A DNA stretch of 38,007 bases from an uncultured Bdellovibrionales bacterium. Lineage in GTDB: Bacteria > Patescibacteriota > Minisyncoccia > Moranbacterales > UBA9337. Positions 3,566 through 37,860 of the stretch are shown piece by piece. The notes under the pieces are model-generated. The model made no database searches, was not told where the DNA came from, and saw nothing but the letters and a program-made list of their open reading frames with translations. Location of the stretch: NCBI GenBank assembly GCA_964603325.1, contig CAZRUH010000002.1, positions 2,959-40,965 on the forward strand. Direction: 5' to 3'. Position 1 is the stretch's first letter. The number at the start of each line of letters is the position of its first letter. The position numbers and the translations under genes were made by a program.

Positions 3566-5230
3566 TTGTTTTTGCATATGCCTAAAATGCTTATATTTAT
3601 TGGAAAAAACATTAAAAATATTGTTAAAAATATAGAAAAATCGCCAACAAATTTTTATCTGTGGTCTCTTTCTTTTTTTTCCATAATCATTATCAGACTG
3701 CTGACCGAAGTTTTTCTTTTTAAACTGACCATCAAAAAAGATTCTTATTTCTTTCTTTATGAATTTACTCACACCTTTCTTTTTTTTCTTATTTCTTATC
3801 TATTGTTTCTTTTTTTATTAACGTCTATCTTAAAAACCAATATTAAAAAATCTTCAAATCTATTGCTTTTTGGCTTTGTGTCCATAATCATTCCACCAAT
3901 TGTTGATTTTATTTTTTCCGGAGGAAAAGGTTTTTGGAGTTTCTACAAGTTTGATAGTATTTTTGGTTTAATCAAAAGATTTTTTACTTTTTTTGGTGAT
4001 AACCCTCAAATGGGAATAACTTACGGAGTCAGATTTGAAATTTTGTTAATGTTGTTTTTGTTATTTTTGTTGTCGTACATAAAAACAAAAAGGAGATTCT
4101 TTTCATTTTTTATTGTTTTTATATCTTATCTCGTTTTTTTTATTTTAGGTACATTTCCTTCTTATATAACTTTTTTATTGAAAGGTTTTCAAAAAAATAT
4201 TTTTCAAATTAGCGATCTCGCTATTGCTCAACTTTTTTTAACTCCAATCACATTGTTTGCGCAAAAAACGCATTCCATAGAAAGCGCTCTCAATATTAAA
4301 ATGAGTTTAATTTATACAATATTTCTTAGTGGAATTATTTTAATCGGATTTTTTTTGAATTACAGAAAGAAATTTTTAATATTTTTATCCAATATTCGTC
4401 CGGCTCAAATAGTTTATCATTTGGGACTATTTGCTATCGGTGTTAAATTAGGAGAAACATTTACCAAGACAACCATTTCTTGGAATTTTTTTAACATTAT
4501 TGCGCTATTAAATATATCATTGGCAATAACCTTATCTTGGATAACCTCAGTTATTATTAATGATATTTTTGATGAAAAAATTGATCGCATTAGCAATACG
4601 GAAAGACCTTTGGTTTCCGGAGGTTTTACAAAAAACGATTATTTGGCTATCGGAATGTCAACTTTCTTTTTTTCAATATTGTTTTCAATAATTGTTTCTC
4701 CAAAAATATCATTATTACTTATTGCTTACCAAGCATTGGCATCAATTTATTCCATTCCACCGCTAAGATTTAAAAAAATCGTCTTTTTGTCTGCAATTAT
4801 CAGTTCTTTCGCTTCCGTCTTGATTTTTATTTCCGGATTTATCTTAATTTCACCAAATCAAGACATTGTTCAGCTTCCTTATCAAATAATATGGCTATTA
4901 TTTATTTCATTATCATTGTCTTTACCGATAAAAGATCTGAAAGACATCTCCGGAGACAAAAAATATTACGTAAAAACTATTCCGGTAGTCTTTGGAGAAT
5001 ATTGGGGAAAAATTATTATTGGCTTTGGCGTTTTTATTTCTTATATTTTAAGTGTTATTCTTTTAAATGAATACCGACTTTTTTGGTGGGCTGTCATTTT
5101 TGGATCTTTTTCGTTTTGGACAATAAACTGTCCCGGAAAAATAAAGTTGATTACCAATAAAAATTTAATTTGGTGGTTATTAATAATCTTGTTTTTTTAT
5201 TTAATCGTTATTTATTTTAAATTTATTTAA
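3566..5230 (+). CDS. UbiA-family prenyltransferase fused to a long N-terminal polytopic membrane extension
   Basis: 554-aa ORF. The track start is TTG; the first ATG is at 3578. The first Asp-rich motif NDIFDEKIDR sits near residue 332 and the second motif KDLKDISGDKK near the C-terminus, with multiple TM helices throughout. Confidence 0.75.
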   Translation: MFLHMPKMLIFIGKNIKNIVKNIEKSPTNFYLWSLSFFSIIIIRLLTEVFLFKLTIKKDSYFFLYEFTHTFLFFLISYLLFLFLLTSILKTNIKKSSNLLLFGFVSIIIPPIVDFIFSGGKGFWSFYKFDSIFGLIKRFFTFFGDNPQMGITYGVRFEILLMLFLLFLLSYIKTKRRFFSFFIVFISYLVFFILGTFPSYITFLLKGFQKNIFQISDLAIAQLFLTPITLFAQKTHSIESALNIKMSLIYTIFLSGIILIGFFLNYRKKFLIFLSNIRPAQIVYHLGLFAIGVKLGETFTKTTISWNFFNIIALLNISLAITLSWITSVIINDIFDEKIDRISNTERPLVSGGFTKNDYLAIGMSTFFFSILFSIIVSPKISLLLIAYQALASIYSIPPLRFKKIVFLSAIISSFASVLIFISGFILISPNQDIVQLPYQIIWLLFISLSLSLPIKDLKDISGDKKYYVKTIPVVFGEYWGKIIIGFGVFISYILSVILLNEYRLFWWAVIFGSFSFWTINCPGKIKLITNKNLIWWLLIILFFYLIVIYFKFI

Positions 5231-5234
5231 AATA

Positions 5235-7748
5235 TTAGAAACTAACGCTGATTTTTTCGGTTTTTTTATCCTTATTTCCATTTTTATCTGTTATTTCAGC
5301 TTCTATTTTCAATGTAGAATTGTTTTTCTCGGTCGGTATATCATAAACAAAACTGAAGGAACTACTCTCCGCGGAAAACACCTCATTGTTATCAATGTAA
5401 ATTTTTATATTTTTAACGCCATAACTTGCATTTGCTTTTGCTGTAATTTTTATTTGTGAAGGATTGTTTTTGTGAATACTTAAATCAAGTTTTGGTTTGT
5501 ATTTTGAGAAATCTTCTTCCCGACACTCTTTTTCCGGAGTGTCATCCAAGATATATTTTTTCTTTTTATTTTTTTTATACCACATTCTCACGGCATCTTC
5601 CCACCTTCTAAATTGAGGATCTTTTTCCGGATGTTTTGGAATATCTCCACGAGGATCTTTCCTGTTAACATACCAAAGGATTGAGTGTGCATTAACAAAA
5701 GTTTTCTTTTTTCTTTCTTTTTTTGGACAATACTTATTTGCTAAACACCAGTGTTTTTTCTCTCCGGGAATTTCACAAACTTCTTCCTTTTTCTCAATTT
5801 CCAAATCTCCCTTCAAAATACCCTTTTTAACTTCTTTCATTTCTTCATCTTTATTATATTTGGGAAATTCTTCTTTATCATAGTTTTCCAAGACCTGATC
5901 CATAAAACTTCGCCAAATTGGCGACGCGACATTAGCACCGGCCGCTCCAACTTTCATCGGACGATTATCGTTATTCCCCGCCCAAACACCAACGGCAATT
6001 GATGGTGTATACCCCATTGTCCAGCCATCACGAAACTCATTGGTTGTTCCCGTTTTGGCAACAACCTGACGATCATCAAAGCGTAATGGGTTTTGTTCGC
6101 CAAAAGCGGGAGCGCGAAATTTATTATTTGATATAATGTAGTCCAACATTGCTACATATTTTTCTTTGACGACACGAGTTCCGACATTATTTTTGAATTC
6201 TTCTATCACCTTACCGTCTTTATTTTCAATTTTAAGAATTGCCACTTTATCATGTTTAATCCCTCCATTCGCCAGAGTCGCAAAAGCGTTGGTATGATCT
6301 AAGAGACGCACTTCTCCTCCTCCAAGAACCAAGGATAATCCGTAACGATCAGGATTGTTTAATCCGGTAACTCCCAAATTTTTTGCCATCTTAATGGCAT
6401 TTTTAACTCCCACAAGATAGAGCGTTTTTACCGCCGGAACATTTAGAGACATTCCCAATGCATCCTGCATTTTTATCGGACCACGAAATTTACCATCATA
6501 ATTTTGAGGAACATAATTATTATCACTCCCTTTATTGAAATCAGTTTCCACATCATACAAAATCGTTTCCGGCAAATATCCCTTGGTAAAAGCGGTTAGG
6601 TACACATATGGCTTAAAAGATGATCCCGGTTGTCTTTCACTTAAAGCTACATTTACTTGTCCATCAATAGATTTGTCAAAATAATCCTTACTTCCAACCA
6701 TTGCCAAAATTTGACCGGTTTTCGGATCAATGGCAACCAAAGCGGCGTTTTCCGCATTCCATCTCTTGGCATTTTTTTCCACACCTTCTCTAACAACTTT
6801 TTCAGCAATTTGTTGTTTATCCCAATCCAATGTGGTATAAACCTTTAGCCCGCCCTCCTTCATTTCCTGTTCGCCATATTTACTATCCAAATACTCTTTT
6901 ACATACATTACAAAGTGAGGCGCTTTAATATTTTCTCTTTTGACTATTATTTTTTTAAATACATCAACTTTTTTTGCATTCTCCGCTTCTTCTTTTGAAA
7001 TATATCCGAGTTCAGCCATATTATCTATGGCCATTTCTTGGCGAATCTTTAATTTTTTTCTATGAGAACCGTACGGGGAATAATATGTTGGGGCTTTTGG
7101 TAATGAGGCCAGAAGCGTTGCCTCATCAATGGTTAAATTCTTAGCCGATTTGTTAAAAAAAGTTTTTGCCGCCGCTTCTATTCCATAAGCGTTTGAGCCA
7201 TATGGAATTTCATTTAAATACATTTTTAAAATTTCATCTTTAGAAAATTTCTGTTCAATTTCAAACGCCAAAATAACTTCTTTGATTTTCCTTGTCAATG
7301 TCCTTTCTCTTGTCAATATTGAATTTTTTATAAGTTGTTGCGTTATCGTAGAGCCACCTTGAGCCGCACCCCTCTTAACAATATCTTTAAAAAGAGCTCT
7401 GATTATAGAAGAAATCTTTACTCCGTGATGATAATAAAAATCACGATCCTCTAAAACTATTGTTGCATTTTTTATGTTATCGTTCATTTGATCAAAGGGA
7501 ATAAGTGTTCTTTTTTCCTCTCCGTGTATTTCATATAGCAAATGTTTTCCCGTACGATCAAATATTTTTGTAGACTCTGCAATAATTCTTTTATTGACTT
7601 TGTTGGGGTCCGGTAAGTCTTTGGCAAAATAAGCAAAAATTCCCATTACGGAAACAACCCCCAAAATCAAACTGATGAAAAATAATTTTAAAACAATACT
7701 CCATCGGTTTCTTTTTCTTTCTTTTGTCTCTTTTTTTTGTTTAACCAT
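5235..7748 (-). CDS. class A penicillin-binding protein (glycosyltransferase + transpeptidase) with C-terminal extension
   Basis: GT51 motifs EDRDFYYHHG and GGSTITQQL. Transpeptidase motifs SSFKP (SxxK), SLN (SxN) and KTGTT. N-terminal TM anchor. C-terminal Lys/Cys-rich linker plus a beta-rich tail. Confidence 0.9.
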   Translation of the reverse strand: MVKQKKETKERKRNRWSIVLKLFFISLILGVVSVMGIFAYFAKDLPDPNKVNKRIIAESTKIFDRTGKHLLYEIHGEEKRTLIPFDQMNDNIKNATIVLEDRDFYYHHGVKISSIIRALFKDIVKRGAAQGGSTITQQLIKNSILTRERTLTRKIKEVILAFEIEQKFSKDEILKMYLNEIPYGSNAYGIEAAAKTFFNKSAKNLTIDEATLLASLPKAPTYYSPYGSHRKKLKIRQEMAIDNMAELGYISKEEAENAKKVDVFKKIIVKRENIKAPHFVMYVKEYLDSKYGEQEMKEGGLKVYTTLDWDKQQIAEKVVREGVEKNAKRWNAENAALVAIDPKTGQILAMVGSKDYFDKSIDGQVNVALSERQPGSSFKPYVYLTAFTKGYLPETILYDVETDFNKGSDNNYVPQNYDGKFRGPIKMQDALGMSLNVPAVKTLYLVGVKNAIKMAKNLGVTGLNNPDRYGLSLVLGGGEVRLLDHTNAFATLANGGIKHDKVAILKIENKDGKVIEEFKNNVGTRVVKEKYVAMLDYIISNNKFRAPAFGEQNPLRFDDRQVVAKTGTTNEFRDGWTMGYTPSIAVGVWAGNNDNRPMKVGAAGANVASPIWRSFMDQVLENYDKEEFPKYNKDEEMKEVKKGILKGDLEIEKKEEVCEIPGEKKHWCLANKYCPKKERKKKTFVNAHSILWYVNRKDPRGDIPKHPEKDPQFRRWEDAVRMWYKKNKKKKYILDDTPEKECREEDFSKYKPKLDLSIHKNNPSQIKITAKANASYGVKNIKIYIDNNEVFSAESSSFSFVYDIPTEKNNSTLKIEAEITDKNGNKDKKTEKISVSF

Positions 7749-7783: not shown

Positions 7784-8674
7784 CTATCTGATCAACCTCC
7801 TGATAATTTCCCTAGCCACATTTGTTCCGGTTGCTTTTTCAAATCCTTTAAATTGAGCGGAAGTATTTATTTCCAGAGCTAAATACCCTCTATCGCTTTT
7901 TATAAAATCAATGCCCGCATAAAAAAGATTTCCCTTTTTCATAATTTTTTTTGCCATTTTTTTTATTTCCTCATCTATTTCTACAATTTCCGCTTTACCG
8001 CCCAAAGAAACATTGGCGCGAAAATCTCCATTTTGCGAAGTCCTTTTAATTGCTCCCAAAATTTCTCCTCCCAAAACCAATACTCTAAAGTCGGTGCCTG
8101 CGGATTCTTTAATAAATTCTTGAAGAATAAAAGAACTTCTTCTAAAAGGAACATCCACAGTCGCTTCCATTTTTTTCTTAATAAAGTTTTTAACGTCGTT
8201 TGAGGAATTAACTATTTTTACGCCACTACCCATTGAACCAATATTGGCCTTAATTATACAAGGATAACCGCCTATATGATTAGCCAGCCTGTCAAGCTTA
8301 TATTCCTTAAAAGTATTTACAAAAATAGTTTTCGGCGTTGGGATGTTTATTGATGAAAAAAAACTGTTTCCAAAAAATTTATCCGCATAATTTATCGCCC
8401 CTGTATTTGTCCAAATAAATTTTATTTCTTTTTTAAACCTTGATGTTAAATATCTAATCAAATGATGGGCTGCCGCATTATTGGAAATTGTCCAAACAAT
8501 ATCCCCTCTCTTAAATTTTATTTCTTGGTCATTATTGATAATTTTATTGTCAGTAATTTGCACATTATATGTTTTGATAATTTCCAGCTCTACACCCAAT
8601 TTTTCACCCTCTTCTCTAAATCTATTTAAACGAATACATTCTCCAAAGGTAATTATCCATATTTTTTTTGCCAT
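7784..8674 (-). CDS. RimK-type ATP-grasp amidoligase (alpha-L-glutamate-ligase-like)
   Basis: 296 aa. The pattern IIKANIGSMGSGVKIV...QEFIKESAGTDFRVLVLGGEILGAIKRTSQNGDFRANVSLGG...AGIDFIKSDRGYLALEINTSAQFKGFE matches the canonical RimK/LysX family layout. Confidence 0.8.
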   Translation of the reverse strand: MAKKIWIITFGECIRLNRFREEGEKLGVELEIIKTYNVQITDNKIINNDQEIKFKRGDIVWTISNNAAAHHLIRYLTSRFKKEIKFIWTNTGAINYADKFFGNSFFSSINIPTPKTIFVNTFKEYKLDRLANHIGGYPCIIKANIGSMGSGVKIVNSSNDVKNFIKKKMEATVDVPFRRSSFILQEFIKESAGTDFRVLVLGGEILGAIKRTSQNGDFRANVSLGGKAEIVEIDEEIKKMAKKIMKKGNLFYAGIDFIKSDRGYLALEINTSAQFKGFEKATGTNVAREIIRRLIR

Positions 8675-8715
8675 AATTTTAATTTTGTTACATTTTTTTG
8701 TTAAAATTTTACAAC

Positions 8716-9660
8716 TTAAAATTTTTCCGGAAAAAAGAAATATTTTACAATTTCATCCGCAACATTGTGTGATTTCCCTTTAACGGGATAAATATGCAAC
8801 AGCAATCCGGGAAAAGCATTTATTTCAATAATTGTAAACTTATTTCCACCGATATCTTCCGTTATTATATCAAAACCGGCAACATCCATTTTTAATTTAT
8901 TCGCGATATCAATTACCACTTTTTTAATTTCGGAAGATATTTTATCGGTAAAATCAACCGGGGTCCCACCACTTTTTATATTAGCGGTTTTTTTCAAATA
9001 AACTTTTTGGTTTTTTTTGATAATACTGGAAAATGAAAGATTTTGGTCATTCAAACACTTTTCCATAAGATCATCTCTTTCCGCGCGATATCGCTTTATC
9101 AATTTTTTGTTCCGTTTTTGCAATAAATTGCTTATATCATTTTGCCCATCACCAATAATAAAAACCGGTTCTTTTTTGGATACGAATATTTTTTTTCTGC
9201 CAATGATCAAAACTCTATAATCATCACCACAACTATATTTTTCCAAAACAACCTTATTGTAAGCATCGTTTTTTTTGGCAAATTCAATTGCCGGTACCAA
9301 TTCTTTCTCTTTCGTTATTCCAACGGTAATTCCCTTTCCGTGTATTCCTCTTTCCGGTTTAATTACAATTTTTTTGTGTTTCTTTAAAAATTTTATTGCT
9401 TGATTTATATTCAAATAACGTTCCATTTCCGAAACCGGAACACTCCATTTTCTCAAAAAAACATTTGTCAAAAATTTACTTTCGGTTAATCTGTAACTGA
9501 TTGCACTGGTGGTTTCCGGCATACTCTCCGTAAACATTATTTTCTTTTCTGCGTTTTTTAAATAATAATATGTTCTATGAATAAATTCAAACTCCACTCC
9601 TCTTTTCTTGGCAGCTTGAGCAATTTCCAAAATTATCTTGTTTTTAGTTCTTTGAATCAT
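8716..9660 (-). CDS. stand-alone ATP-grasp ligase resembling the N-terminal ATP-grasp module of cyanophycin synthetase
   Basis: 314 aa. IVIKPERGIHGKGITVGI...EKYSCGDDYRVLIIGRKKIFVSKKEPVFIIGDGQNDISNLL...AGFDIITEDI...IIEINAFPGL resembles the CphA-type pattern (RlLVvg..vvAa.kR.Pa.ViGDG). Its start overlaps the upstream ORF end by 17 nt. Confidence 0.7.
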   Translation of the reverse strand: MIQRTKNKIILEIAQAAKKRGVEFEFIHRTYYYLKNAEKKIMFTESMPETTSAISYRLTESKFLTNVFLRKWSVPVSEMERYLNINQAIKFLKKHKKIVIKPERGIHGKGITVGITKEKELVPAIEFAKKNDAYNKVVLEKYSCGDDYRVLIIGRKKIFVSKKEPVFIIGDGQNDISNLLQKRNKKLIKRYRAERDDLMEKCLNDQNLSFSSIIKKNQKVYLKKTANIKSGGTPVDFTDKISSEIKKVVIDIANKLKMDVAGFDIITEDIGGNKFTIIEINAFPGLLLHIYPVKGKSHNVADEIVKYFFFPEKF

Positions 9661-10507
9661 TTTTTTGTTCTTTTTTATGCTTACTTACTAAAAAATCAAC
9701 CATCGCCCCGGAAATATCCACGCCCGTAGTTAATTGATTTCTTGGAAAATAACAAGGGAAATTTACTTCAGCCAAGTACGGTTCGTTATTTTTTCCGATT
9801 AAAATATCTATTCCACTAAATTCCAGGTCAAGAATTTCAATCGCTCTTATGGCTATTTCTTCAAATATCTTGGGAAATTTTTCCGCTTTAACCCGGGGCT
9901 TACCAACATTTGTCCTAAAATCATTTTTAGGAACAATGTATTCAATGCTATCAATAACCTCATTTCCCAGAACAATCAATCTCGCGTGCCGGTAAGATTC
10001 AATGTATTGTCGTAGCACCATTTTTTTTGCTCCACTTTTTTTCAAAAAACCGATAACTGAAATTAAAGATTCCATAGAATTCATTTTCATAACTCCGGCT
10101 CCGTGACTTAATCCCGTCACCTTTAGAATAATGGGAAAACCGCCGATTTCATCAACCAAATTTCTTAAAATTTCGTAATCATCATTTATAACGGTTACCG
10201 TCTTGGGCATGGGTATGTTATAAAATTTTTGCAAAGGAATATCCATAGCATTAAAAAACGCTCGTTTATTTGTTTTATAAAAAGTTGTTAATTTGTTTTT
10301 TTGCAACAAAAAAAGCTCTATATTTTTTGCCAGCTCTCCCGAAGTTATCCTATATAAAACCCCTTCGTTGTTTTGATATTCTTGATTTAAAACATTAAAC
10401 TCATTAACATCCACATTTACAAATTTCAAGCCTTTGTCTTGAGCCGATTTTTTTAATAATCCTCTGGTTATTTTTTGTGTTTTTTGAGAGATACAAAAAA
10501 ATTTCAT
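9644..10507 (-). CDS. divergent RimK-like ATP-grasp amidoligase
   Basis: 287 aa. PIILKVTGLSHGAGVMKM...LRQYIESYRHARLIVLGNEVIDSIEYIVPKNDFRTNVGKP...SGIDILIGKNNEPYLAEVNFPCYF has the RimK layout, but the usual GG loop is replaced. Confidence 0.7.
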   Translation of the reverse strand: MKFFCISQKTQKITRGLLKKSAQDKGLKFVNVDVNEFNVLNQEYQNNEGVLYRITSGELAKNIELFLLQKNKLTTFYKTNKRAFFNAMDIPLQKFYNIPMPKTVTVINDDYEILRNLVDEIGGFPIILKVTGLSHGAGVMKMNSMESLISVIGFLKKSGAKKMVLRQYIESYRHARLIVLGNEVIDSIEYIVPKNDFRTNVGKPRVKAEKFPKIFEEIAIRAIEILDLEFSGIDILIGKNNEPYLAEVNFPCYFPRNQLTTGVDISGAMVDFLVSKHKKEQKNDSKN

Positions 10508-10565
10508 ACTATTCTTGTTTAAATTTATTTAAATTGTGTTTTTCAAAAACCTATCGCCAACTAGT

Positions 10566-11966
10566 CTAAACCTTATTAACATCAATCATAAACTTTCTCA
10601 AATTTCTTCTACCTATAATTACGGGGTATTTTAAGTGCGAACGCTTAATAATGGTCATTTTTGCCGTTACCGGCCTTTTATCCATAACAAAACTTAGTTT
10701 AACTATGGGACGATAACTTATGCCATGTGAAGATCTGACCATAACCGTTGAGGTTATATATGGTATATTTTTATAAATATTCCATCGTTGCTCTTTGTTT
10801 AAACCTTTTAATTCTTTATAGTCCTTGCCGATTGCATTAAAAGCTTCTATTGTCTTTTTAAATCCCAATTTTTTTACCAATTCTTCATCAATGGAAGATG
10901 TGTATGCCCCCGTATCAATTTTAGCTTCCACATAAAACTCCTTTCCGTTGCGACCAATCAATTTTATTTTTTCTTTGAAACCGATAACTTTTTTTCCGGA
11001 AATTTCTTCCAACTCATCTTCCACCTCTCCACCGAACAAATCAACGCCCACATTTACACCTCTTTTGATTGTTTTTATTTTAAGACCGGCAACTCTTTCC
11101 ATTCTTTCTTGCAACCCGGCGGAATTGGCAATTTGAATTGATAATCCCGCCCTTGCATTAAGTTCCAAAAAAACCGGCCCCCTCTCCTTATCAATGGCAA
11201 CATCGGCACCAAGAAAACCCAGTCCGGAAACATTTTGAGCTTTAACCGCCAATTCCAAAATTTCTCTCCAGTAAGGAATTTTTAAGCCGGAAACACTAAG
11301 TCTGGTTCCGGGAATTATTTCTATAATTTTTGATTTCTTTCCCTGCACCGCCATTGTTGTAATTCCGGTTGCCAAATCAATCCCCATTCCTATACCGCCC
11401 TGTTGTAAATTCGCTTTTCCTCCGGATTCCTTCGTTGGCAAGCGCAACATTGCCATAATCGGTACTCTGTTGTAAACAATAACCCTAATATCTGGAATTC
11501 CTTTATAAACATACGGTTTAAATAGTTTCAATAATGTTAATCTTTCTTCAAAGAAAGCAATATCAGGAATTCCCGAAAGAGAAAAGTTCCCATCCAAGAT
11601 ATTTCTAATATGATTTTTCAGATCTTCTACGGTTACAATTTTTCCATCCGCCTTAACCCAAGCATCATTTCTTCCTTTTTTTTTACCGAATACAACCAGT
11701 ATTCCCGCCCCTCCCAGTCCTTTGTTTGGTTTTAATGCAAAACTATTTGGCAATTTATCCCAATTAAAATCCTCCAGTTTTTCGTGGCTGACAATTTTGG
11801 CAATCAACTTTGGAACCGGAATATTTTCCTTGCGTAAAACTCTTTTACTCAACAATTTATCATCCGCAATTCTGATTGCTTTCTTGCGATTATTTGGCCT
11901 AATATAACGCAAATAACGCGCATTCATTCCCAGAATCTTGCGACTATTTTTAATATAGTTAAACAT
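10566..11966 (-). CDS. fusion: alpha-L-glutamate-ligase-like ATP-grasp (TIGR02291/ATPgrasp_ST type) + C-terminal retropepsin-like protease (DUF785/PF05618 type)
   Basis: 466 aa. N-terminal part: GMNARYLRYIRPNN...DDKLLSKRVL...GKANLQQGGIGMGIDLATG...FLELNARAGLSIQIAN. C-terminal ~140 aa: VEAKIDTGAYTSSID (aspartic-protease DTGA signature)...RPIV...VIIGRRNLRKFMIDV. Confidence 0.8.
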   Translation of the reverse strand: MFNYIKNSRKILGMNARYLRYIRPNNRKKAIRIADDKLLSKRVLRKENIPVPKLIAKIVSHEKLEDFNWDKLPNSFALKPNKGLGGAGILVVFGKKKGRNDAWVKADGKIVTVEDLKNHIRNILDGNFSLSGIPDIAFFEERLTLLKLFKPYVYKGIPDIRVIVYNRVPIMAMLRLPTKESGGKANLQQGGIGMGIDLATGITTMAVQGKKSKIIEIIPGTRLSVSGLKIPYWREILELAVKAQNVSGLGFLGADVAIDKERGPVFLELNARAGLSIQIANSAGLQERMERVAGLKIKTIKRGVNVGVDLFGGEVEDELEEISGKKVIGFKEKIKLIGRNGKEFYVEAKIDTGAYTSSIDEELVKKLGFKKTIEAFNAIGKDYKELKGLNKEQRWNIYKNIPYITSTVMVRSSHGISYRPIVKLSFVMDKRPVTAKMTIIKRSHLKYPVIIGRRNLRKFMIDVNKV

Positions 11967-11986
11967 AAAAAGATAGTTTATTCCTC

Positions 11987-12655
11987 TTAAATTTTCTTTA
12001 GAATCTCCTTAAATCTCCAGTATTCTAAAACACGTAATCCCGTCCATTTGCCCAAAAATATATTTATCGGTATTGTCAACAATACAACCCATGGATGTGT
12101 TAAAATAAGCACAATCAAACTATTCCAACTTATAATAAAATATCCTATTAAAGAAATAAAAAGAGTTTCCGTTGCTAAAAAAAATGCCGTTTTGTTTCCT
12201 TTTTGAATTTGAGTGGAAACAAACTTTTCCACAATTGTAATCATAACCAAAAGAGGAAAAATCGGCACCGTTGCCAGTCCTGTTCTTTGCAAAGAACCAC
12301 CAATAACCAAAACCGTTAGAATTGAAAAAGCAACTACACTTAAAGTTATTGCTACCCTTGGCAAATAAAGCAATCTAAACTTTTTAAGAATATATCGGGT
12401 AGCCATCCCAACAAAGATAACACTTATAAAAATTGTTACTCCATATTTAATTCCTTTTGATCCTGCCTCCCCCGCCATTGCCAAAAATGCAAACGTGATT
12501 ATTGATGGCGTATAAATACCAAACGCTTTGATACCGAAAACTTGACGAAAAAACGCAATCAAAGTCACTACCACCGGAAGCATTAAAATAAGCAAGATAC
12601 TTTCTTGCGGAACGCCTTGCGAAACAAAATAATTAATTGTAAAATAATTTGACAT
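11987..12655 (-). CDS. 7TM membrane protein of the type normally fused to an inactive transglutaminase domain (7TM_transglut-like), here stand-alone
   Basis: 222 aa with about 7 hydrophobic helices. The pattern FGIKAFGIYTPSII...RLLYLPRVA...FPLLVMITIVEKF matches my recollection of the PF14402 module. It lies 20 nt upstream of the ligase-protease fusion. Confidence 0.7.
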   Translation of the reverse strand: MSNYFTINYFVSQGVPQESILLILMLPVVVTLIAFFRQVFGIKAFGIYTPSIITFAFLAMAGEAGSKGIKYGVTIFISVIFVGMATRYILKKFRLLYLPRVAITLSVVAFSILTVLVIGGSLQRTGLATVPIFPLLVMITIVEKFVSTQIQKGNKTAFFLATETLFISLIGYFIISWNSLIVLILTHPWVVLLTIPINIFLGKWTGLRVLEYWRFKEILKKI

Positions 12656-12714: not shown

Positions 12715-13224
12715 TTAGACATATAAACTTTTCTTGGATGTGGTTGCATTTTTAATTGCGCTTTTTTCTTCCTCAGTCAATGGAAAATCCAAACATTTAT
12801 TATTGCTGATTGATTTTGCAAAAAATCTCACACCCTCTCTTGTGTAAAGAGATGAAATAATCACTCCGGAATTATCTTTATCCAAAAAAGCGATTACAAA
12901 GCTTTGGTTTCCACCGATATCTCCAAAGGGATTATATCTTATTACACCTATTTTTTGCACCGCTTTAGTTGTAATTTTGTAAATTTTTTCATAAGCATCA
13001 AATAATTCTTTGATATCATTTTTATTTTTTTGTCCTTGTTCTATCCACCTTAAAATAATTTTTTCCAAATCTTCGCCATTTTTACCGGAAAAAATCTCCT
13101 TGCCAACTTTTTTTATTTCTTTGATTTTGAGTAAAATGTAAAAATTCCAAACCGACAAAATAATTAAAAAAATAATTAAAAATAAAAACGCGTAAGTTAA
13201 ATTGTTTTGAAAAAAGCCGTTCAT
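12715..13224 (-). CDS. DUF4446-family membrane-anchored protein
   Basis: 169 aa with an N-terminal TM, a coiled region, then GVIRYNPFGDIGGNQSFVIAFLDKDNSGVIISSLYTREGVRFFAKSI...LTEEEKSAIKNA, which is typical of DUF4446. Confidence 0.75.
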   Translation of the reverse strand: MNGFFQNNLTYAFLFLIIFLIILSVWNFYILLKIKEIKKVGKEIFSGKNGEDLEKIILRWIEQGQKNKNDIKELFDAYEKIYKITTKAVQKIGVIRYNPFGDIGGNQSFVIAFLDKDNSGVIISSLYTREGVRFFAKSISNNKCLDFPLTEEEKSAIKNATTSKKSLYV

Positions 13225-13235
13225 ATTAATTAACT

Positions 13236-14657
13236 CTATTTAATTTTCAAACTGATGGAATAAAACAGATTATCTTTGTTGATAAAAAACAAATTATCAT
13301 TTATGCCGGAATAAACCACTTTCGTATCGGGATTGCCTGTGTTAAAAATATCATAAATGTTTCTGTGCGAACGACGATCAATTTCCGCCATCATAATTTT
13401 ATTATCAACTGTAAAAATTATGTGTTCATAATCACGAAACCATTCTACATTGTTAATATTTTTTAAAAATCTTGCAATATCAACTATTTCACCTTTTCTC
13501 CTGACAGGTTGAGTTTCCCACTTACGCAAGAAATAAACAAAAATTTCTTTTTCATTCCAATAAACCATTTTTTTGCCATCATCAGAAAAATGTAAACCCA
13601 AAACTCCTGTACTTATTTTTTCCAAACTTCTGTCACCGTCATCATTATTGTATAAATATAACTCTCCATTTTGAGAGATAATTGCCACTCTATCTTTATC
13701 ATAAACAATAATTTTAAATTCATTACCTCCGGCAACTTTTATGGTCTTGGTAGATATTTGTTCAGTGCGATTATTTCCCTTAACGCTTTTTCTGTAAATT
13801 ATTCCATTTTGCTTTGATAAATAATAAAAATACGACCCCGAAAAATCATAGCCAAAAATATTTTTGACTAATACTTTTTTATTGCTTGTGCTTAAATCAA
13901 GTTTTAAGAGATTATTTTTGTGCATATAAAAAATCGCATTTTTTTCTTTTGAGCTCCAACGAAGCCATCTTATTTCCTTTTCTCCAATCAATTCATTTAA
14001 ATTTATAATCTCCTTGTTTCCAATACTGATAACAAAATATTCTTTTTTGTTATTTTTTATCAATGGAACAATTAGACGACCTTCTTTTGGTGACCATTCA
14101 ATGTTTTCCTTTTCCGTCTTTGAGAAAAAAAATCCATCAAAAGGAAATGCGTAACTGACTTTCTTTTTTTTGACATCAATAATTTTAACAATCGCTCCAT
14201 TTTTTGTATTTTCTACCAGAGCAAATTTTCTATTGTCCGGAGAAATAAAAAAATTATCTACAGAGTCAGATAAATATTTCGTTTCCTCATATCTATTTTT
14301 TATCAAAAAAATGTTCCAGAATTCCGTAGATATGCCACTATGTATATGTATATTCTTAAACCAATCCTTAAATCCCGGTGCCTGAACCTTAAGAGAATGT
14401 TTCCCCGGCTTCAACCCATCAATGTGATATGAATAATTTAAAAAATTAATCACCCCCTTTGAAACAGGTTTGTTGTCAATAAAAACACTTATTTCCTTTG
14501 GGGTTGATTTTAGCGTAATGGATCCGGTATAGATAAATATCCCCCTATCAAAACTAAAACGATAACCCATCGCGTAAAAAACCACCAAAGGAGCTGTTGC
14601 CAAAAAAATAATCGCCAACAACCAAAAAAATATTTTCCTGGTTTGAGTTTCCGTCAT
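13236..14657 (-). CDS. membrane-anchored PEGA-domain protein with C-terminal beta-propeller-like (TolB-like) region
   Basis: 473 aa with an N-terminal TM. PEGA-like segment: ITLKSTPKEISVFIDNKPV...LKPGKHSLKVQAPGFKDW. It is followed by repetitive beta-strand-rich sequence. Confidence 0.7.
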   Translation of the reverse strand: MTETQTRKIFFWLLAIIFLATAPLVVFYAMGYRFSFDRGIFIYTGSITLKSTPKEISVFIDNKPVSKGVINFLNYSYHIDGLKPGKHSLKVQAPGFKDWFKNIHIHSGISTEFWNIFLIKNRYEETKYLSDSVDNFFISPDNRKFALVENTKNGAIVKIIDVKKKKVSYAFPFDGFFFSKTEKENIEWSPKEGRLIVPLIKNNKKEYFVISIGNKEIINLNELIGEKEIRWLRWSSKEKNAIFYMHKNNLLKLDLSTSNKKVLVKNIFGYDFSGSYFYYLSKQNGIIYRKSVKGNNRTEQISTKTIKVAGGNEFKIIVYDKDRVAIISQNGELYLYNNDDGDRSLEKISTGVLGLHFSDDGKKMVYWNEKEIFVYFLRKWETQPVRRKGEIVDIARFLKNINNVEWFRDYEHIIFTVDNKIMMAEIDRRSHRNIYDIFNTGNPDTKVVYSGINDNLFFINKDNLFYSISLKIK

Positions 14658-20230: not shown

Positions 20231-21262
20231 TTACTCAAACTGACTCTTAAAAATCACATTGCAAGCTCCTTCAACTGAAACCATACATGGGCCAATGGGA
20301 TTTTCCGGCACACATTTTTTACCAAACATCGGACATTGCTTTGGTGTTTTTAAACCACGAATAATTTCTCCGCAACTGCAACCAATCGGTTCCTTTGATT
20401 TGGAAAAATCAACTTTGTTTAAAATATCTTTATAAATTATTTTTGCATCTTGCCGAGCATATTTTTTTTTCAACTCCAAACCGGAACCCGGAATATCTCC
20501 AAATCCTCGCCAGTTTCCACTATTAACTTCAAAAACATCAAAAATTATTTTTCTCGCTTTTAAATTTCCTCCTGTTTCAACAACCCTATCATATTGATTT
20601 TCAACATCTTTTCGATTTTCCGCAATTTGTTTAAGCAACAAATAAATTCCCTCCAGAACATCTTTTGCTTCAAATCCCGCAATAACTTGGGCTACTTTCA
20701 TTGACTTATACACATTTACTCCAACAATAGCACTCACATGTCCGGGATTAATGAAGCCATCAATTTTAATTTCACCGATTTTTAATAAAGCTTCCATTGC
20801 CGGCAAAAAAAGTTTATGAGCAGAATAAATATTCAAACCTTTTTTAACCGCATAAGCCGTCATCGGAGTTGTTGTGTCAAAACCAATTCCGAAAAAAACT
20901 AATTTTGAAAAATTTTTTTGTATTTTCAAAGCATCTTCCACGGAGTAAACATCAAAAACCTTAGCGCCCTTTTCACGAGCGTCATTTAAACTTCCAAATA
21001 CTCCCGGAACTCTCAAAACATCACCATAAGTTGCTATGGGAATTCCGGACAATGCCAAACTGACAATTGCATCAACGTCTTTTTGTGCCGTTACGCAAAC
21101 CGGACAACCGGGACCGGTTATCAAGTTTACATTTTCCGGCAAAATATTTCTAATTCCAAACCGACTGATTGCCTGAGTGTGTGTTCCGCAAACTTCCATT
21201 AGGTTTATGTTCCGCCCAATTTTTTTCGCCACCGTTTTAATATTTTTTAACGTTTTTTGCAT
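20231..21262 (-). CDS. hypD: [NiFe]-hydrogenase maturation factor HypD
   Basis: 343 aa: CGTHT, GPGCPVCV, GIGFDTTTP, NPGHVSAIVG, and the C-terminal Cys cluster CSCGEIIRG...CPMFGKKCVPENPIGPCMVSVEGAC. Confidence 0.9.
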   Translation of the reverse strand: MQKTLKNIKTVAKKIGRNINLMEVCGTHTQAISRFGIRNILPENVNLITGPGCPVCVTAQKDVDAIVSLALSGIPIATYGDVLRVPGVFGSLNDAREKGAKVFDVYSVEDALKIQKNFSKLVFFGIGFDTTTPMTAYAVKKGLNIYSAHKLFLPAMEALLKIGEIKIDGFINPGHVSAIVGVNVYKSMKVAQVIAGFEAKDVLEGIYLLLKQIAENRKDVENQYDRVVETGGNLKARKIIFDVFEVNSGNWRGFGDIPGSGLELKKKYARQDAKIIYKDILNKVDFSKSKEPIGCSCGEIIRGLKTPKQCPMFGKKCVPENPIGPCMVSVEGACNVIFKSQFE

Positions 21263-33831: not shown

Positions 33832-35169
33832 TTAATTTTTTAAAATATTCCTCACCACTTTTCTATCGTCCCAGGGAATTAGTTTTCCATTGGCCACGGC
33901 AATAGCTTGTTCTGAACCTTTGCCGGTAATCAAGACGATATCTTTATTATCCGCTAAAGATATTGCTTTTTTAATACCTTTTTCTCTGTCTTTAATTAAA
34001 AATAAATTTTCGTTTTCAATTTTACCAACTTTCCTGGCTCCGTCAGCAACATCTTTTATTATTTCTAACGGATCATCATCATAAGGGTCTTCGTTGGTTA
34101 CAATAACATAATCCGCCTCTTTACCGGCCAACCCTCCCAGTTTTTCTCGCCGAGAAATATCTCGCCCACCACCGGCAGAACCTAAAACATGAATTATTTT
34201 ATTGTGCCTAATTTTAGAAATTGTTTCATATGTTTTTTTTAATGCCTTTGGTTCAAAAGCATAATCAACAATAACCATAAAATCTTGCCCTTCGTTTATT
34301 TTTTCCAATCTTCCCGGAATATTTTTTATTTTTTGCAATCCGGCTTTTATGTTATTCTCGCTTATATTTAAGGCAACACCTACGCTTCCCGCAATAGTCG
34401 CATTTATTGCATTAAAACTCCCCAATATTTGCAAATATATTTTGGTTTTGTTAAATAAAAATGTTGTACCAAAATCTCCACTATCTAAAATTTTATACAT
34501 TATCACATTTTCGCTTTTATTTTGCCATACATCCTTTTTTGAAAAAATAATCTTTTTAGGTACCGAAAAATTTTGAAATTCATTAAAATATTTATCATCT
34601 CCGTTTACAATTATTGTTTTTTTAATATTGCTAAATTCTATTTTTTTCTTTTTTTTAGAGTGTTCCAAGTGCTTAAAAAGTTTCAGTTTTTCTTTTTTAT
34701 AATTTTCAAAACTCCCATGAGATTCAATGTGTTCCGGATAAAGTCCTGTAAAAACAACAATATCATAATTGATAAACTTATGACGAAATTGTCTAATACC
34801 TTCTGATGTTGTTTCAATAATTGCAATTTGACAACCGTTTTTTACCATTTGTCGCAACATTTTTTGTGTAAAAAATCTCCCCAACATTGTCATTTTTTTA
34901 TCATTGAGCCACTCTTTTTTCCCATCACTCAACAATGCTGTTGATGTCCATCCAATCTTGAAACCGGCATTTTTCAACATTTTTGCCATCAAATAAACGC
35001 TGGTGGTTTTCCCTGTAGTTCCCGTAACGCCAACTACCAATAATTTTTTACTTGGAAAACGATAAACTACGGACGCCAAAAAAGCCATTGAAAAATGATA
35101 AACCGGCTGAAAAAACAAAAAAACTTTTTTTGGAATAATCTTTTTTATAAAAACCAGAACTCTATCCAT
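33832..35169 (-). CDS. murE: MurE-family Mur ligase lacking the canonical N-terminal domain
   Basis: 445 aa. P-loop VGVTGTTGKTT already at about residue 47. Also ETTSEGIRQFRH, PEHIESHGSFENYKKEKLKLF, GSFNAINA, IPGRLE, VDYAFEPKAL, GSAGGGRD...VTNEDPYDDDP and ITGKGSEQ. Confidence 0.85.
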   Translation of the reverse strand: MDRVLVFIKKIIPKKVFLFFQPVYHFSMAFLASVVYRFPSKKLLVVGVTGTTGKTTSVYLMAKMLKNAGFKIGWTSTALLSDGKKEWLNDKKMTMLGRFFTQKMLRQMVKNGCQIAIIETTSEGIRQFRHKFINYDIVVFTGLYPEHIESHGSFENYKKEKLKLFKHLEHSKKKKKIEFSNIKKTIIVNGDDKYFNEFQNFSVPKKIIFSKKDVWQNKSENVIMYKILDSGDFGTTFLFNKTKIYLQILGSFNAINATIAGSVGVALNISENNIKAGLQKIKNIPGRLEKINEGQDFMVIVDYAFEPKALKKTYETISKIRHNKIIHVLGSAGGGRDISRREKLGGLAGKEADYVIVTNEDPYDDDPLEIIKDVADGARKVGKIENENLFLIKDREKGIKKAISLADNKDIVLITGKGSEQAIAVANGKLIPWDDRKVVRNILKN

Positions 35170-36294: not shown

Positions 36295-37860
36295 TTAAAC
36301 ACTTAAACAAATTCCCTCTCTACGCTCATCTCCCGCACCGGAAAAACTATTTTTTCTTTTATCAAACACTACGCAATTTGCCCCACCGAAAAACAAATTT
36401 TTTTCTTTCCAAACATTTACATTTTCAAACTCTTTTTTAATTTTCTCAATAACTTTCACGGAAAAACCCGGCTCAATGTCTAATTTTCCATTTTCAAAAT
36501 GAAGTCGCGGACCATTCACGGCATCATTAATATTTTTTTCAAAATCCAAAATATTTATCAATGTCTGAAATATGGCAGATCTTAACCTGTTTGAGCCGGC
36601 AGATCCCAATGCCATTTTTAAATCATTATTAATTGCAATAGATGGGGCCATCATTGATGAAATTCTTTCGTCTTCCTTCCAATTAAAAAATCCTTCCGGA
36701 TTCAAATCTTCTTCACCAAGCATATTGTTTAAAACACTGCCCGTTCCCGGAATTAAATATCCCGAACCCTCTCCATTTGTTGTTGTCATACTTGCCATAT
36801 TTCCCTCTTTGTCAATAACACTGATTTGAGTTGTGCTTCCCCATTTATTTACCCTATCAAAAATATCTTCCGCAAAAATATCCAAATATTTTGGAGACAA
36901 AATCTCTTCAATAATTTTTTTATTTCTAATATTTTTATTTATCTTATCTTTTCTAATGATACCGGTTTTTTCCATCGCCAATACCAAAGAACCTAAATGT
37001 TTCTCTGAACCATAATCTTCTTTTTTTAAATTAACTTTTTCTAAAAGTTTTAGAGTTATTGAAATTAATATTCCCCCGGCAGATGGTGGTGGGTTGGTTA
37101 TAAAATTTGTATCTTTATATTCAATTGTTATTGGTTTTCTTTTTTTTATTTCATATTTTTTCATATCATTCATACTAATCAACCCACCCATTTTTCGCAT
37201 ATCTTCAACCATTTTTTTGGCAATCTCTCCTTGATAAAATTCTTCAACGCCATTCTCTGCCAAAAATTCCAAAGTACTTGCCAAATCATTGTTTTTTAAA
37301 ACCTCCCCTTGCTTTAATAGTTCTCCCTTTTCTTTTGAACTTTTAAAAAGATTTAGAGTTTCTTTTTGAGATTTATATATTTCACTCAAAATTTCAAAAG
37401 CAAACCCGGAGAACCAATTCATTTTTATTCCCTCTCTGGCAAACTTAACTGCCGGCTCTATAACTTTTTTAATTGGTAAGACACCTAACTCCTTTTGAAT
37501 CTCAAAAGCTCCCCTGGCGCTACCGGGAACCGCTGATGAGGCCATTCCGATATGAAAAATTTGTGTTGCTCCACCAAAATCAACCTCCACAGGATAAAAA
37601 TCCATTTCTTTTTTTGCTTTTTTTTGCCTGGGAGTTTGCACAAAAAAATCATACAAACAACTTTTATTATCTTTTGTATAAACCATTAAATAACTCCCCC
37701 CGCCTAAAGACGCCAAACTTGGTTCCGCCAAACAAGCCGCAAAAAATGCTCCTATGACGGCATCATAAGCATTTCCGCCGGCTTCTAAAATTATTTTTCC
37801 GGCTTCAGCAGTTATGGGATGTCCCGCAGAAATAATTCCTTTTGATTTTGATTTTTTCAT
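36295..37860 (-). CDS. ggt: gamma-glutamyltransferase (Ntn-hydrolase)
   Basis: 521 aa: GGNAYDAVI...GGGSYL...autoprocessing/catalytic Thr context GSTTQISVIDKEGNMASMTTTNG...GSAGSNRL...GAGDERREG. Confidence 0.9.
   Translation of the reverse strand: MKKSKSKGIISAGHPITAEAGKIILEAGGNAYDAVIGAFFAACLAEPSLASLGGGSYLMVYTKDNKSCLYDFFVQTPRQKKAKKEMDFYPVEVDFGGATQIFHIGMASSAVPGSARGAFEIQKELGVLPIKKVIEPAVKFAREGIKMNWFSGFAFEILSEIYKSQKETLNLFKSSKEKGELLKQGEVLKNNDLASTLEFLAENGVEEFYQGEIAKKMVEDMRKMGGLISMNDMKKYEIKKRKPITIEYKDTNFITNPPPSAGGILISITLKLLEKVNLKKEDYGSEKHLGSLVLAMEKTGIIRKDKINKNIRNKKIIEEILSPKYLDIFAEDIFDRVNKWGSTTQISVIDKEGNMASMTTTNGEGSGYLIPGTGSVLNNMLGEEDLNPEGFFNWKEDERISSMMAPSIAINNDLKMALGSAGSNRLRSAIFQTLINILDFEKNINDAVNGPRLHFENGKLDIEPGFSVKVIEKIKKEFENVNVWKEKNLFFGGANCVVFDKRKNSFSGAGDERREGICLSV

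Follow-up and report, generated by a model that had tools for sequence, protein, structure and literature searches.

What is assembled by a run of ATP-grasp ligase genes that begins with a small membrane protein? The question is raised by five genes on the minus strand of a 38,007-nucleotide stretch of contig CAZRUH010000002.1 (GCA_964603325.1, positions 2,959–40,965; hereafter the window), from an assembly titled uncultured Bdellovibrionales bacterium and placed by GTDB in the Moranbacterales (Patescibacteriota). A preliminary description, made from the window alone, saw in them an operon of a stand-alone seven-transmembrane (7TM) protein, a ligase-protease fusion and three extra ATP-grasp amidoligases, and proposed that they tail a membrane-proximal acceptor with amino acids. 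We find that the system is of the Rlo/Rim type, ligase plus retropepsin, and that three features distinguish it: a stand-alone 7TM protein, an independently evolved, cytoplasmic protease fusion with the protease at the C terminus, and a variable cassette of amidoligases. Only the 7TM and ligase-protease pair is conserved. We tentatively favor a reading in which this pair, docked at the membrane, makes and trims Glu-rich peptides in a process tied to the cell envelope.

The 7TM gene and the ligase-protease gene form the conserved unit

A tblastn survey recovered 63 and then 146 loci, which correspond to 118 distinct loci. In every distinct locus with room for it (108 of 108), the fusion gene comes immediately after the 7TM gene, and the 7TM protein is present in at least 328 species-level genomes. 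Its relatives come almost entirely from metagenome-assembled genomes of Moranbacteria (Patescibacteria).

The genes that follow the pair vary. The stretch from the fusion gene to a gene for the class A penicillin-binding protein PBP1A holds between one and five genes on the same strand, most often no more than four, and at least 40 combinations occur. The commonest cassette cluster, an ATPgrasp_ST/YheCD-like ligase, is not found in the window. Other ligase clusters are RimK-like (some members fused to DUF3541), like the G domain of cyanophycin synthetase CphA (the type of G4, the second accessory ligase of the window; cluster C2, 18 members, 17 of them from other loci), or RimK-family (the type of G5, the third; cluster C3, 10 members). 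Orthologs of the first, G3, occur in the closest relatives only (L001, L147 and L148). Proteins with the M and C domains of Mur ligases come after G4-type genes, an arrangement that amounts to a split CphA, and further cassette genes encode a GT4 glycosyltransferase, GNAT acetyltransferases and MATCAP-family carboxypeptidases. The preliminary description required gene order to be conserved in some related genome, and the exact five-gene order of the window recurs in L147 (7TM protein 91% identical, PBP1A downstream), L148/L149 (86%) and L001 (88%). It is limited to these closest relatives and is not a fixed operon across the wider set. The earlier view of a system expanded by three ligases therefore holds in that three extra ligases are present, and fails in that they are one state of a variable cassette and do not define the system. 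Ligase genes are swapped freely between species around a constant pair, which points to a product whose chemistry is diversifying fast.

Two side observations emerged from the survey. A family of 466–469-residue proteins without a Pfam match (Table 1) recurs after the G5-type RimK gene; its gene is missing from the window, where G5 runs straight into PBP1A. In addition, metagenome-assembled genome records titled "uncultured Bdellovibrionales bacterium" (L012, L018–L020, L026 and many of L079–L146) carry Moranbacteria-type loci, with 7TM proteins 60–68% identical and the same synteny, which suggests that these titles are taxonomically wrong.

The 7TM protein is reduced to its membrane domain and conserved on its cytoplasmic face

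The preliminary description made its proposal depend on a relationship of the first gene product to PF14402, and this relationship is clear (92.5 bits, cut-off 25). The match to the RloB model NF052267 (75.2 bits, cut-off 900) is confined to positions 311–507 of 508, the C-terminal half of RloB, and only 18 residues precede the first transmembrane helix. The protein thus has no ectodomain, and the inactive transglutaminase domain is missing, as had been noted. An AlphaFold2 model, with a mean predicted local distance difference test score (pLDDT) of 84.8 and a predicted template modeling score of 0.80, comprises seven transmembrane helices and a C-terminal helix. Lysines and arginines number 16 on one side of the membrane and 2 on the other. 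Since the richer side is taken to be the inside, the predicted topology places the N terminus outside and the C terminus inside.

With this topology, conservation is concentrated at the cytoplasmic face: 26 of 60 cytoplasmic residues are invariant (43%), against 7 of 37 outside (19%) and 21 of 125 within the membrane (17%). The conserved cytoplasmic motifs include RQ.xG.K.FG, LYLPR, EKF..Q..KG and GKWTGLR..EY.RF, and an invariant glutamate, E163, lies mid-membrane. A Foldseek search of the model against the PDB gave no significant match, the best being to NqrD/RnfE-type subunits (E = 0.45), so that we could assign the fold to neither transporters nor receptors.

A cytoplasmic retropepsin is fused to an ATP-grasp ligase

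The second gene product contains PF14397 and PF05618 domains in a single open reading frame (ORF), which bears out the ligase-protease fusion first described. Both domains are modeled confidently. The ligase domain scores 230.9 bits against PF14397 (cut-off 31.4), has its closest solved folds in ArgX/LysX, RimK and CphA1, and retains the catalytic K, D and E-x-N. An ILGMNxR motif at its N terminus is invariant, yet predicted to be disordered.

The protease domain scores 45.5 bits against PF05618 (cut-off 27) and can be aligned with the solved retropepsins 9g59 and 9g58. It also matches the RloA3 model (1.4e-12), while remaining below the RloA1–3 cut-offs (47.7 versus 210 bits), and reaches 18.4 bits against the RimB equivalog NF052261 (cut-off 200). 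The catalytic D351-T-G-A, encoded at 10905–10916, is invariant in an alignment of 54 homologs, as are R419 and R442; K349 is nearly so. Judged from this alignment and from residue spacing, K349-x-D351, R419 and R442 probably correspond to the K-x-D, R and R that contact poly-Glu in RloA. The protease occupies residues 327–466, behind a soluble ATP-grasp domain of 311 residues, and because it is internal to a cytoplasmic protein a signal peptide is impossible. The protease is cytoplasmic.

Between the two domains lies a linker with an acidic block, GGE[IV]EEE[VL]E[ED]ISG[RK][RK]. Together with L310 and F311, at the very end of the ligase part, it makes up the longest invariant block of the fusion protein among the same homologs (L310–G324, LFGGE[IV]EEE[VL]E[ED]ISG), and residues 314–328 are predicted to be disordered (pLDDT < 50). 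We considered the acidic run as a feature of the whole family and rejected this, since it is missing from triple-fusion relatives, which carry a further domain, and from stand-alone ones; it is therefore specific to this clade. It is flanked by a ligase and by a protease with relatives that cut Glu-rich sequences, and could serve as a pseudo-substrate in cis or as a self-cleavage site for the retropepsin.

The system is a stripped-down relative of Rlo

Iyer et al. in 2009 reportedly brought the domains found here together under the label "inactive transglutaminase-7TM + ATP-grasp + DUF785 protease", and the preliminary description regarded this triad as lacking an experimentally defined function. 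That statement is out of date. In Pseudomonas aeruginosa, the triad of 7TM protein, TIGR02291-type ligase and retropepsin is RloABC (Lormand et al., mBio 2025, PMC12239564). Three secreted RloA retropepsins, which cut runs of at least eight Glu, are between them required for biofilm formation, for a normal cell shape and for tolerance of antibiotics and hypo-osmotic conditions, phenotypes described for Pseudomonas only. Deletion of rloB (the inactive transglutaminase-7TM protein) or rloC (the ligase) suppresses the protease-null defects (PMC12239564). RloB is 96% proteobacterial (PMC12239564). Transposon insertions in its Shewanella homolog lead to hypervesiculation. In the paralogous Rim system, RimB cleaves poly-Glu, takes Glu tails off RpsF, raises the ATPase activity of RimK four-fold and is required for the synthesis of free poly-α-L-Glu of up to 28–36 residues, and a natural RimB::RimK hybrid, RimBK, is an active protease (Little et al., JBC 2025, PMC11957791).

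Counterparts of all three Rlo components, a PF14402 7TM protein, an ATPgrasp_ST ligase whose TIGR02291 match stays below the cut-off and a DTG retropepsin, are present in the window, tightly linked and on one strand. The differences are these. The 7TM protein has no inactive transglutaminase ectodomain; there is one protease instead of three redundant ones; this protease lacks a signal peptide and sits at the C-terminal end of a cytoplasmic ligase, whereas RloA is secreted; the pair is followed by a variable cassette of extra amidoligases; and the host is a Patescibacterium, with no outer membrane. With RimK and RimB the system shares a cytoplasmic ATP-grasp ligase that is coupled to a retropepsin-like protease, and in both cases the two occur as a natural fusion. 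In contrast to Rim, the core ligase belongs to the ATPgrasp_ST subfamily and not to RimK, a 7TM partner is obligatory, and no link to RpsF was seen. The protease is N-terminal in RimBK and C-terminal here, and from this opposite domain order we conclude that the two fusions arose independently.

In uncultured Moranbacteria, then, the Rlo envelope-stress system of Pseudomonas has a stripped-down relative, which is also its minimal form: no ectodomain, one protease, ligase and protease in one polypeptide, and a membrane partner of 222 residues. This composition makes it attractive for reconstitution aimed at identifying the product. A literature search found no description of the version in the candidate phyla radiation (CPR), and to our knowledge almost nothing is known of the surface biology of these organisms.

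A tentative model for synthesis and trimming of Glu-rich peptides

In the model that we tentatively favor, the cytoplasmic ligase-protease probably docks onto the 7TM protein at its conserved cytoplasmic face. Its RloC-like ligase domain would use ATP to add amino acids one by one to a peptide carboxylate, the residue added being most probably L-glutamate. The fused retropepsin, acting as a dimer, would cut the Glu-rich chains, thereby limiting their length and renewing primer ends, as RimB does for RimK. G3, G4 and G5 would add further residues to give a lineage-specific Glu-rich oligopeptide or polymer, and the 7TM protein would tie these reactions to the envelope, as a conduit that hands the product outward or as a gate on the enzyme. 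By analogy with Rlo, the system probably serves envelope or osmotic homeostasis. The trimming role that the preliminary description gave to the protease is retained in this model, with the amendment that the protease may also promote synthesis. The evidence favors tailing of a membrane-proximal acceptor no more than it favors production of a free Glu-rich peptide, as made by RimK when stimulated by RimB.

The suppression of protease-null defects in rloB and rloC deletions fits this scheme, in which the ligase and the 7TM protein make what the protease processes. The content of the cassettes (ATP-grasp, Mur-ligase-like including split CphA, MATCAP and GNAT genes) likewise suits peptide chemistry. 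The model further draws on the constant pairing of the two genes, on the similar plan in a second CPR lineage (see below), on the topology and cytoplasmic conservation of the 7TM protein, on the fold and intact motifs of the ligases, on the conserved residues of the protease and on the existence of one protein, P0388, that joins a 7TM domain to an ATPgrasp_ST ligase.

Several points weigh against it. No TIGR02291-type ligase has a demonstrated product or substrate, and the ligase domain of the fusion itself falls below the TIGR02291 cut-off (274.6 versus 314.2 bits; model positions 9–291 of 317). The presumption of Glu as substrate is carried over from RimK and from the partner protease. Export is unsupported, given a 7TM fold with no transporter or receptor match. 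Some cassettes contain GT4 and YdjC-like genes, and the Pfam label of the fusion ligase family is "sugar-transfer associated"; both leave a glycan acceptor open. The protease is cytoplasmic and RloA is secreted, so the logic of periplasmic processing in Pseudomonas is not simply transferable. Finally, the 564-residue P0388, with its stand-alone 7TM domain (35–227) and ATPgrasp_ST ligase (247–523), was considered as Rosetta-stone proof and has been downgraded, as it forms a singleton cluster from one 5-kb metagenome contig and was not found in species genomes. The amino-acid composition of P0388 is unlike that of CPR sequences, and the protein may be either genuine or a read-through artifact.

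The accessory ligases are amidoligases related to RimK and CphA

All four ATP-grasp ligases of the window retain the catalytic lysine, the Gly-rich loop, the Mg-binding aspartate and E-x-N, and their nearest solved relatives are RimK, LysX/ArgX, CphA and GshAB. We compared them with models for housekeeping ATP-grasp enzymes (Ddl, PurK/PurT, CarB, GshB and biotin carboxylase), an identity that would have contradicted the preliminary description. No ligase reaches any of the curated cut-offs, and the scores stay far beneath them (Ddl, at most 33 bits versus 243; glutathione synthase, at most 67 versus 272–408; AccC, at most 29 versus ∼600).

G3 is a divergent RimK-like protein that falls below the TIGR00768 cut-off (90.2 versus 143.4 bits) and has its best solved match in RimK (1.3e-16). 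G5, which also matches solved RimK (4.9e-25), exceeds the same cut-off with 176.3 bits. G4 aligns with the ATP-grasp G domain of CphA1 and CphA2, which extends the peptide backbone (solved CphA1, 1.8e-35; TIGR02068 positions 164–472 of 862, 222.7 bits versus a cut-off of 850). It also matches C-terminal domains of GshAB and the synthetase of N-acetylglutaminylglutamine amide (NAGGN; 1.9e-48). In some related loci, a G4-type gene is accompanied by a Mur-ligase-like one that resembles the CphA M domain. G4 itself, in contrast to CphA, stands alone: it has no M domain, the window contains neither an M domain nor a complete N domain, and the operon has no Mur-ligase gene.

These assignments bear on an unlikely alternative, in which the ligases act in the manner of RimK or tubulin tyrosine ligase (TTL) and add Glu or mixed residues to the C terminus of a specific protein from another locus (ribosomal protein S6, for example, or one of the envelope), from which the retropepsin, and in relatives also MATCAP, would remove the tail. 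G5 is above the RimK-family cut-off; the nearest solved folds, RimK, LysX and ArgX, all act at protein C termini; RimB strips such tails from RpsF; and relatives of the fusion protein join the ligase to MATCAP, a family that trims C-terminal residues from the acidic tail of tubulin. Set against this, the RimK equivalog NF007764 (cut-off 331) is matched at only 95.4 bits by G5 and 65.7 bits by G3. A fixed acceptor fits poorly with at least 40 different ligase complements, and the obligatory 7TM partner is left unexplained. The preliminary description had found no acceptor nearby, and we agree: no window ORF of at least 25 residues has an acidic C-terminal tail or a poly-acidic run, and rpsF is absent from the window. 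It had also listed the 7TM protein among possible acceptors. We rejected its C terminus as a RimK-type acceptor tail, since the last residues are basic and variable, which makes this role unlikely for the protein as far as C-terminal tailing is concerned.

A cell-wall neighborhood of uncertain meaning

PBP1A, which begins 35 nt downstream of G5 on the same strand, ends the cassette in 90 of the 108 loci with a fusion gene. This arrangement is the first argument for a second alternative, that a lipid-linked precursor of peptidoglycan or of a glycan is held by the 7TM protein on the inside of the membrane, that the ligases attach to it a peptide side chain or cross-bridge that differs between species, and that the neighboring PBP1A then uses this precursor. 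The adjacency carries less weight than its frequency implies. The opposite flank is housekeeping in most loci (YebC, with RuvC, in about 50 of them), so that the position of PBP1A may be inherited synteny, and in L001 and L148 PBP1A lies upstream, separated by unrelated genes. We therefore no longer treat it as strong functional evidence, and whether PBP1A is a functional part of the system is uncertain.

A second, independent cell-wall context is provided by the most divergent loci (L056, 4097–11405, and L060, 8273–12077; 7TM proteins 52–54% identical), where the pair stands beside divergent mraZ/rsmH genes; in L056, genes for a complete Mur ligase and a MurJ/Wzx-type flippase come after it. 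Mur-ligase-like and GT4 genes also occur in some cassettes. Peptidoglycan cross-bridges vary, and the variability of the cassette would parallel theirs. Mutants of Rlo are affected in cell shape and in their response to ampicillin and hypo-osmotic conditions, and in Vibrio the cell-wall stress system VxrAB controls the operon (PMC12239564). Against precursor modification, it is hard to see what a poly-Glu endopeptidase on the core ligase would contribute to the making of bridges, and models of Ddl and pseudomurein ligases were not matched above noise. We consider this explanation improbable.

The ground plan extends beyond Moranbacteria

An exhaustive search with the fusion protein returned 2,199 representatives at E ≤ 1e-3, of which 417 reached E ≤ 1e-30. 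The best matches include ligase plus retropepsin proteins of ∼430–510 residues, stand-alone RloC-like ligases of ∼300–330 residues and numerous proteins of ∼790 residues in which a MATCAP carboxypeptidase follows the ligase and the retropepsin. Other additions to ligase plus retropepsin, among these best matches, are a second ATP-grasp domain and YdjC. The joining of an ATP-grasp ligase to a MATCAP-family carboxypeptidase, together with the separate MATCAP gene of several cassettes, recalls the logic shared with TTL and MATCAP, that of writing residues onto an acidic C-terminal tail and erasing them again. The window differs in having no MATCAP gene, and the TTL family is matched weakly.

One locus from another CPR lineage (L065, 1870–10678) has the order YebC, RuvC, 7TM gene, triple-fusion gene, three ATP-grasp genes and a MATCAP-like gene. 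Its 7TM protein, of 516 residues, has a PKD-containing ectodomain, and its triple fusion is an 800-residue ligase::retropepsin::MATCAP protein. Because this locus lies in another CPR lineage, the ground plan of a 7TM protein, an ST-type ligase with built-in peptidase or peptidases, and variable amidoligases is wider than Moranbacteria. The ectodomain of the 7TM protein is interchangeable: Proteobacteria have an inactive transglutaminase, L065 has one that contains PKD, and the window has none.

This breadth invites a more ambitious view, which we regard as doubtful: the 7TM protein could be a new kind of translocase or assembly platform across the CPR, on which interchangeable ATP-grasp, Mur-type and GNAT modules build lineage-specific surface peptides or glycopeptides. 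Synthesis may then be independent of the ribosome and of nonribosomal peptide synthetases, with the built-in endo- and carboxypeptidases sizing the product. On this view, the variable cassette would act as a locus of surface diversity in these epibiotic bacteria, and the retropepsin would find a built-in pseudo-substrate or self-cleavage site in the invariant acidic linker.

The remaining alternative, cytoplasmic synthesis of a small peptide or storage polymer (a NAGGN-like dipeptide osmolyte, or a cyanophycin-like or poly-Glu reserve) with the 7TM protein as an on/off sensor, would draw on the matches of G4 to the ATP-grasp domains of NAGGN synthetase, GshAB and CphA, on cassettes with GNAT genes or split CphA (G-like and M-like) pairs, on the link of Rlo to osmotic stress, and on the receptor-like pattern of cytoplasmic 7TM conservation with an interchangeable ectodomain, but is quite unlikely, as a stand-alone 7TM protein with almost no extracellular residues has little to sense with, the Pseudomonas proteases act outside the cytoplasm, so that the product there must leave the cell, and the window has no GNAT or M-domain gene.

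Locus layout and surrounding genes

The five ORFs and their spacing (20, 58, −17 and 41 nt, counted from the 7TM gene on) agree exactly with the preliminary description, and its five domain assignments are borne out by profile searches with Pfam and NCBIfam/TIGRFAM models. Each ORF has many conserved homologs, so the five are real genes. A terminator scan found no terminator-like site in any intergenic gap of the block, and promoter-like sites were no more frequent in the scan than expected by chance. None of the five proteins matches a PADLOC family of known anti-phage defense at E ≤ 0.001.

Table 1. Positions of the operon, its neighbor PBP1A and a recurrent cassette family; positions refer to the window unless a locus is named
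Feature	Position	Strand	Basis
Stand-alone 7TM protein, 222 aa	11987–12655	−	PF14402, 3.7e-26
Ligase-protease fusion, whole ORF, 466 aa	10566–11966	−	
ATP-grasp ligase domain of fusion, aa 1–311	11034–11966	−	PF14397, 2.2e-68
Linker of fusion with acidic block, aa 312–326	10989–11033	−	Alignment of 54 homologs
Retropepsin-like aspartic protease domain of fusion, aa 327–466 and stop codon	10566–10988	−	PF05618, 9.3e-12
Accessory ligase G3, divergent RimK-like ATP-grasp, 287 aa	9644–10507	−	PF08443, 5.5e-19
Accessory ligase G4, cyanophycin-synthetase G-domain-like, 314 aa	8716–9660	−	TIGR02068, 7.6e-66
Accessory ligase G5, RimK-family alpha-L-glutamate ligase, 296 aa	7784–8674	−	TIGR00768, 176.3 bits
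Class A penicillin-binding protein PBP1A	5235–7748	−	Transgly, 8e-61; Transpeptidase, 5.4e-21
466–469-aa family, members in other loci	L001, 15084–16484; L003 and L005, cassette gene 3		L001 and L003 48% identical

The window has a G+C content of ∼31%, and the rest of it carries housekeeping and envelope genes of chromosomal type, encoding TsaD, ValRS, MreB, a MurA-like protein, a GT4 protein, ManC, a Wzy-like protein and one tRNA-Gly. Its Mur ligase (33832–35169) is 24 kb away from the operon. Directly upstream of the 7TM gene are a DUF4446 gene (12715–13224) and a PEGA-domain gene (13236–14657), both on the minus strand. We rejected them as members of the system, because they adjoin the 7TM and fusion pair in no other locus. 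They stand at the border where most relatives have RuvC and YebC, which indicates that the window is rearranged there.

A gene of the gamma-glutamyltranspeptidase family, some members of which anchor or degrade poly-gamma-glutamate, lies 24 kb from the operon (36295–37860, minus strand; PF01019, 9.1e-102). A homolog of the hydrogenase-maturation protein HypD (20231–21262, minus strand; 4.2e-124) is also encoded, and among the window ORFs scanned no hydrogenase or further hyp genes were seen. Convergent with PBP1A, an ORF on the plus strand (3566–5230) encodes a UbiA-family prenyltransferase domain (residues 310–518) preceded by ∼300 residues of additional hydrophobic sequence.

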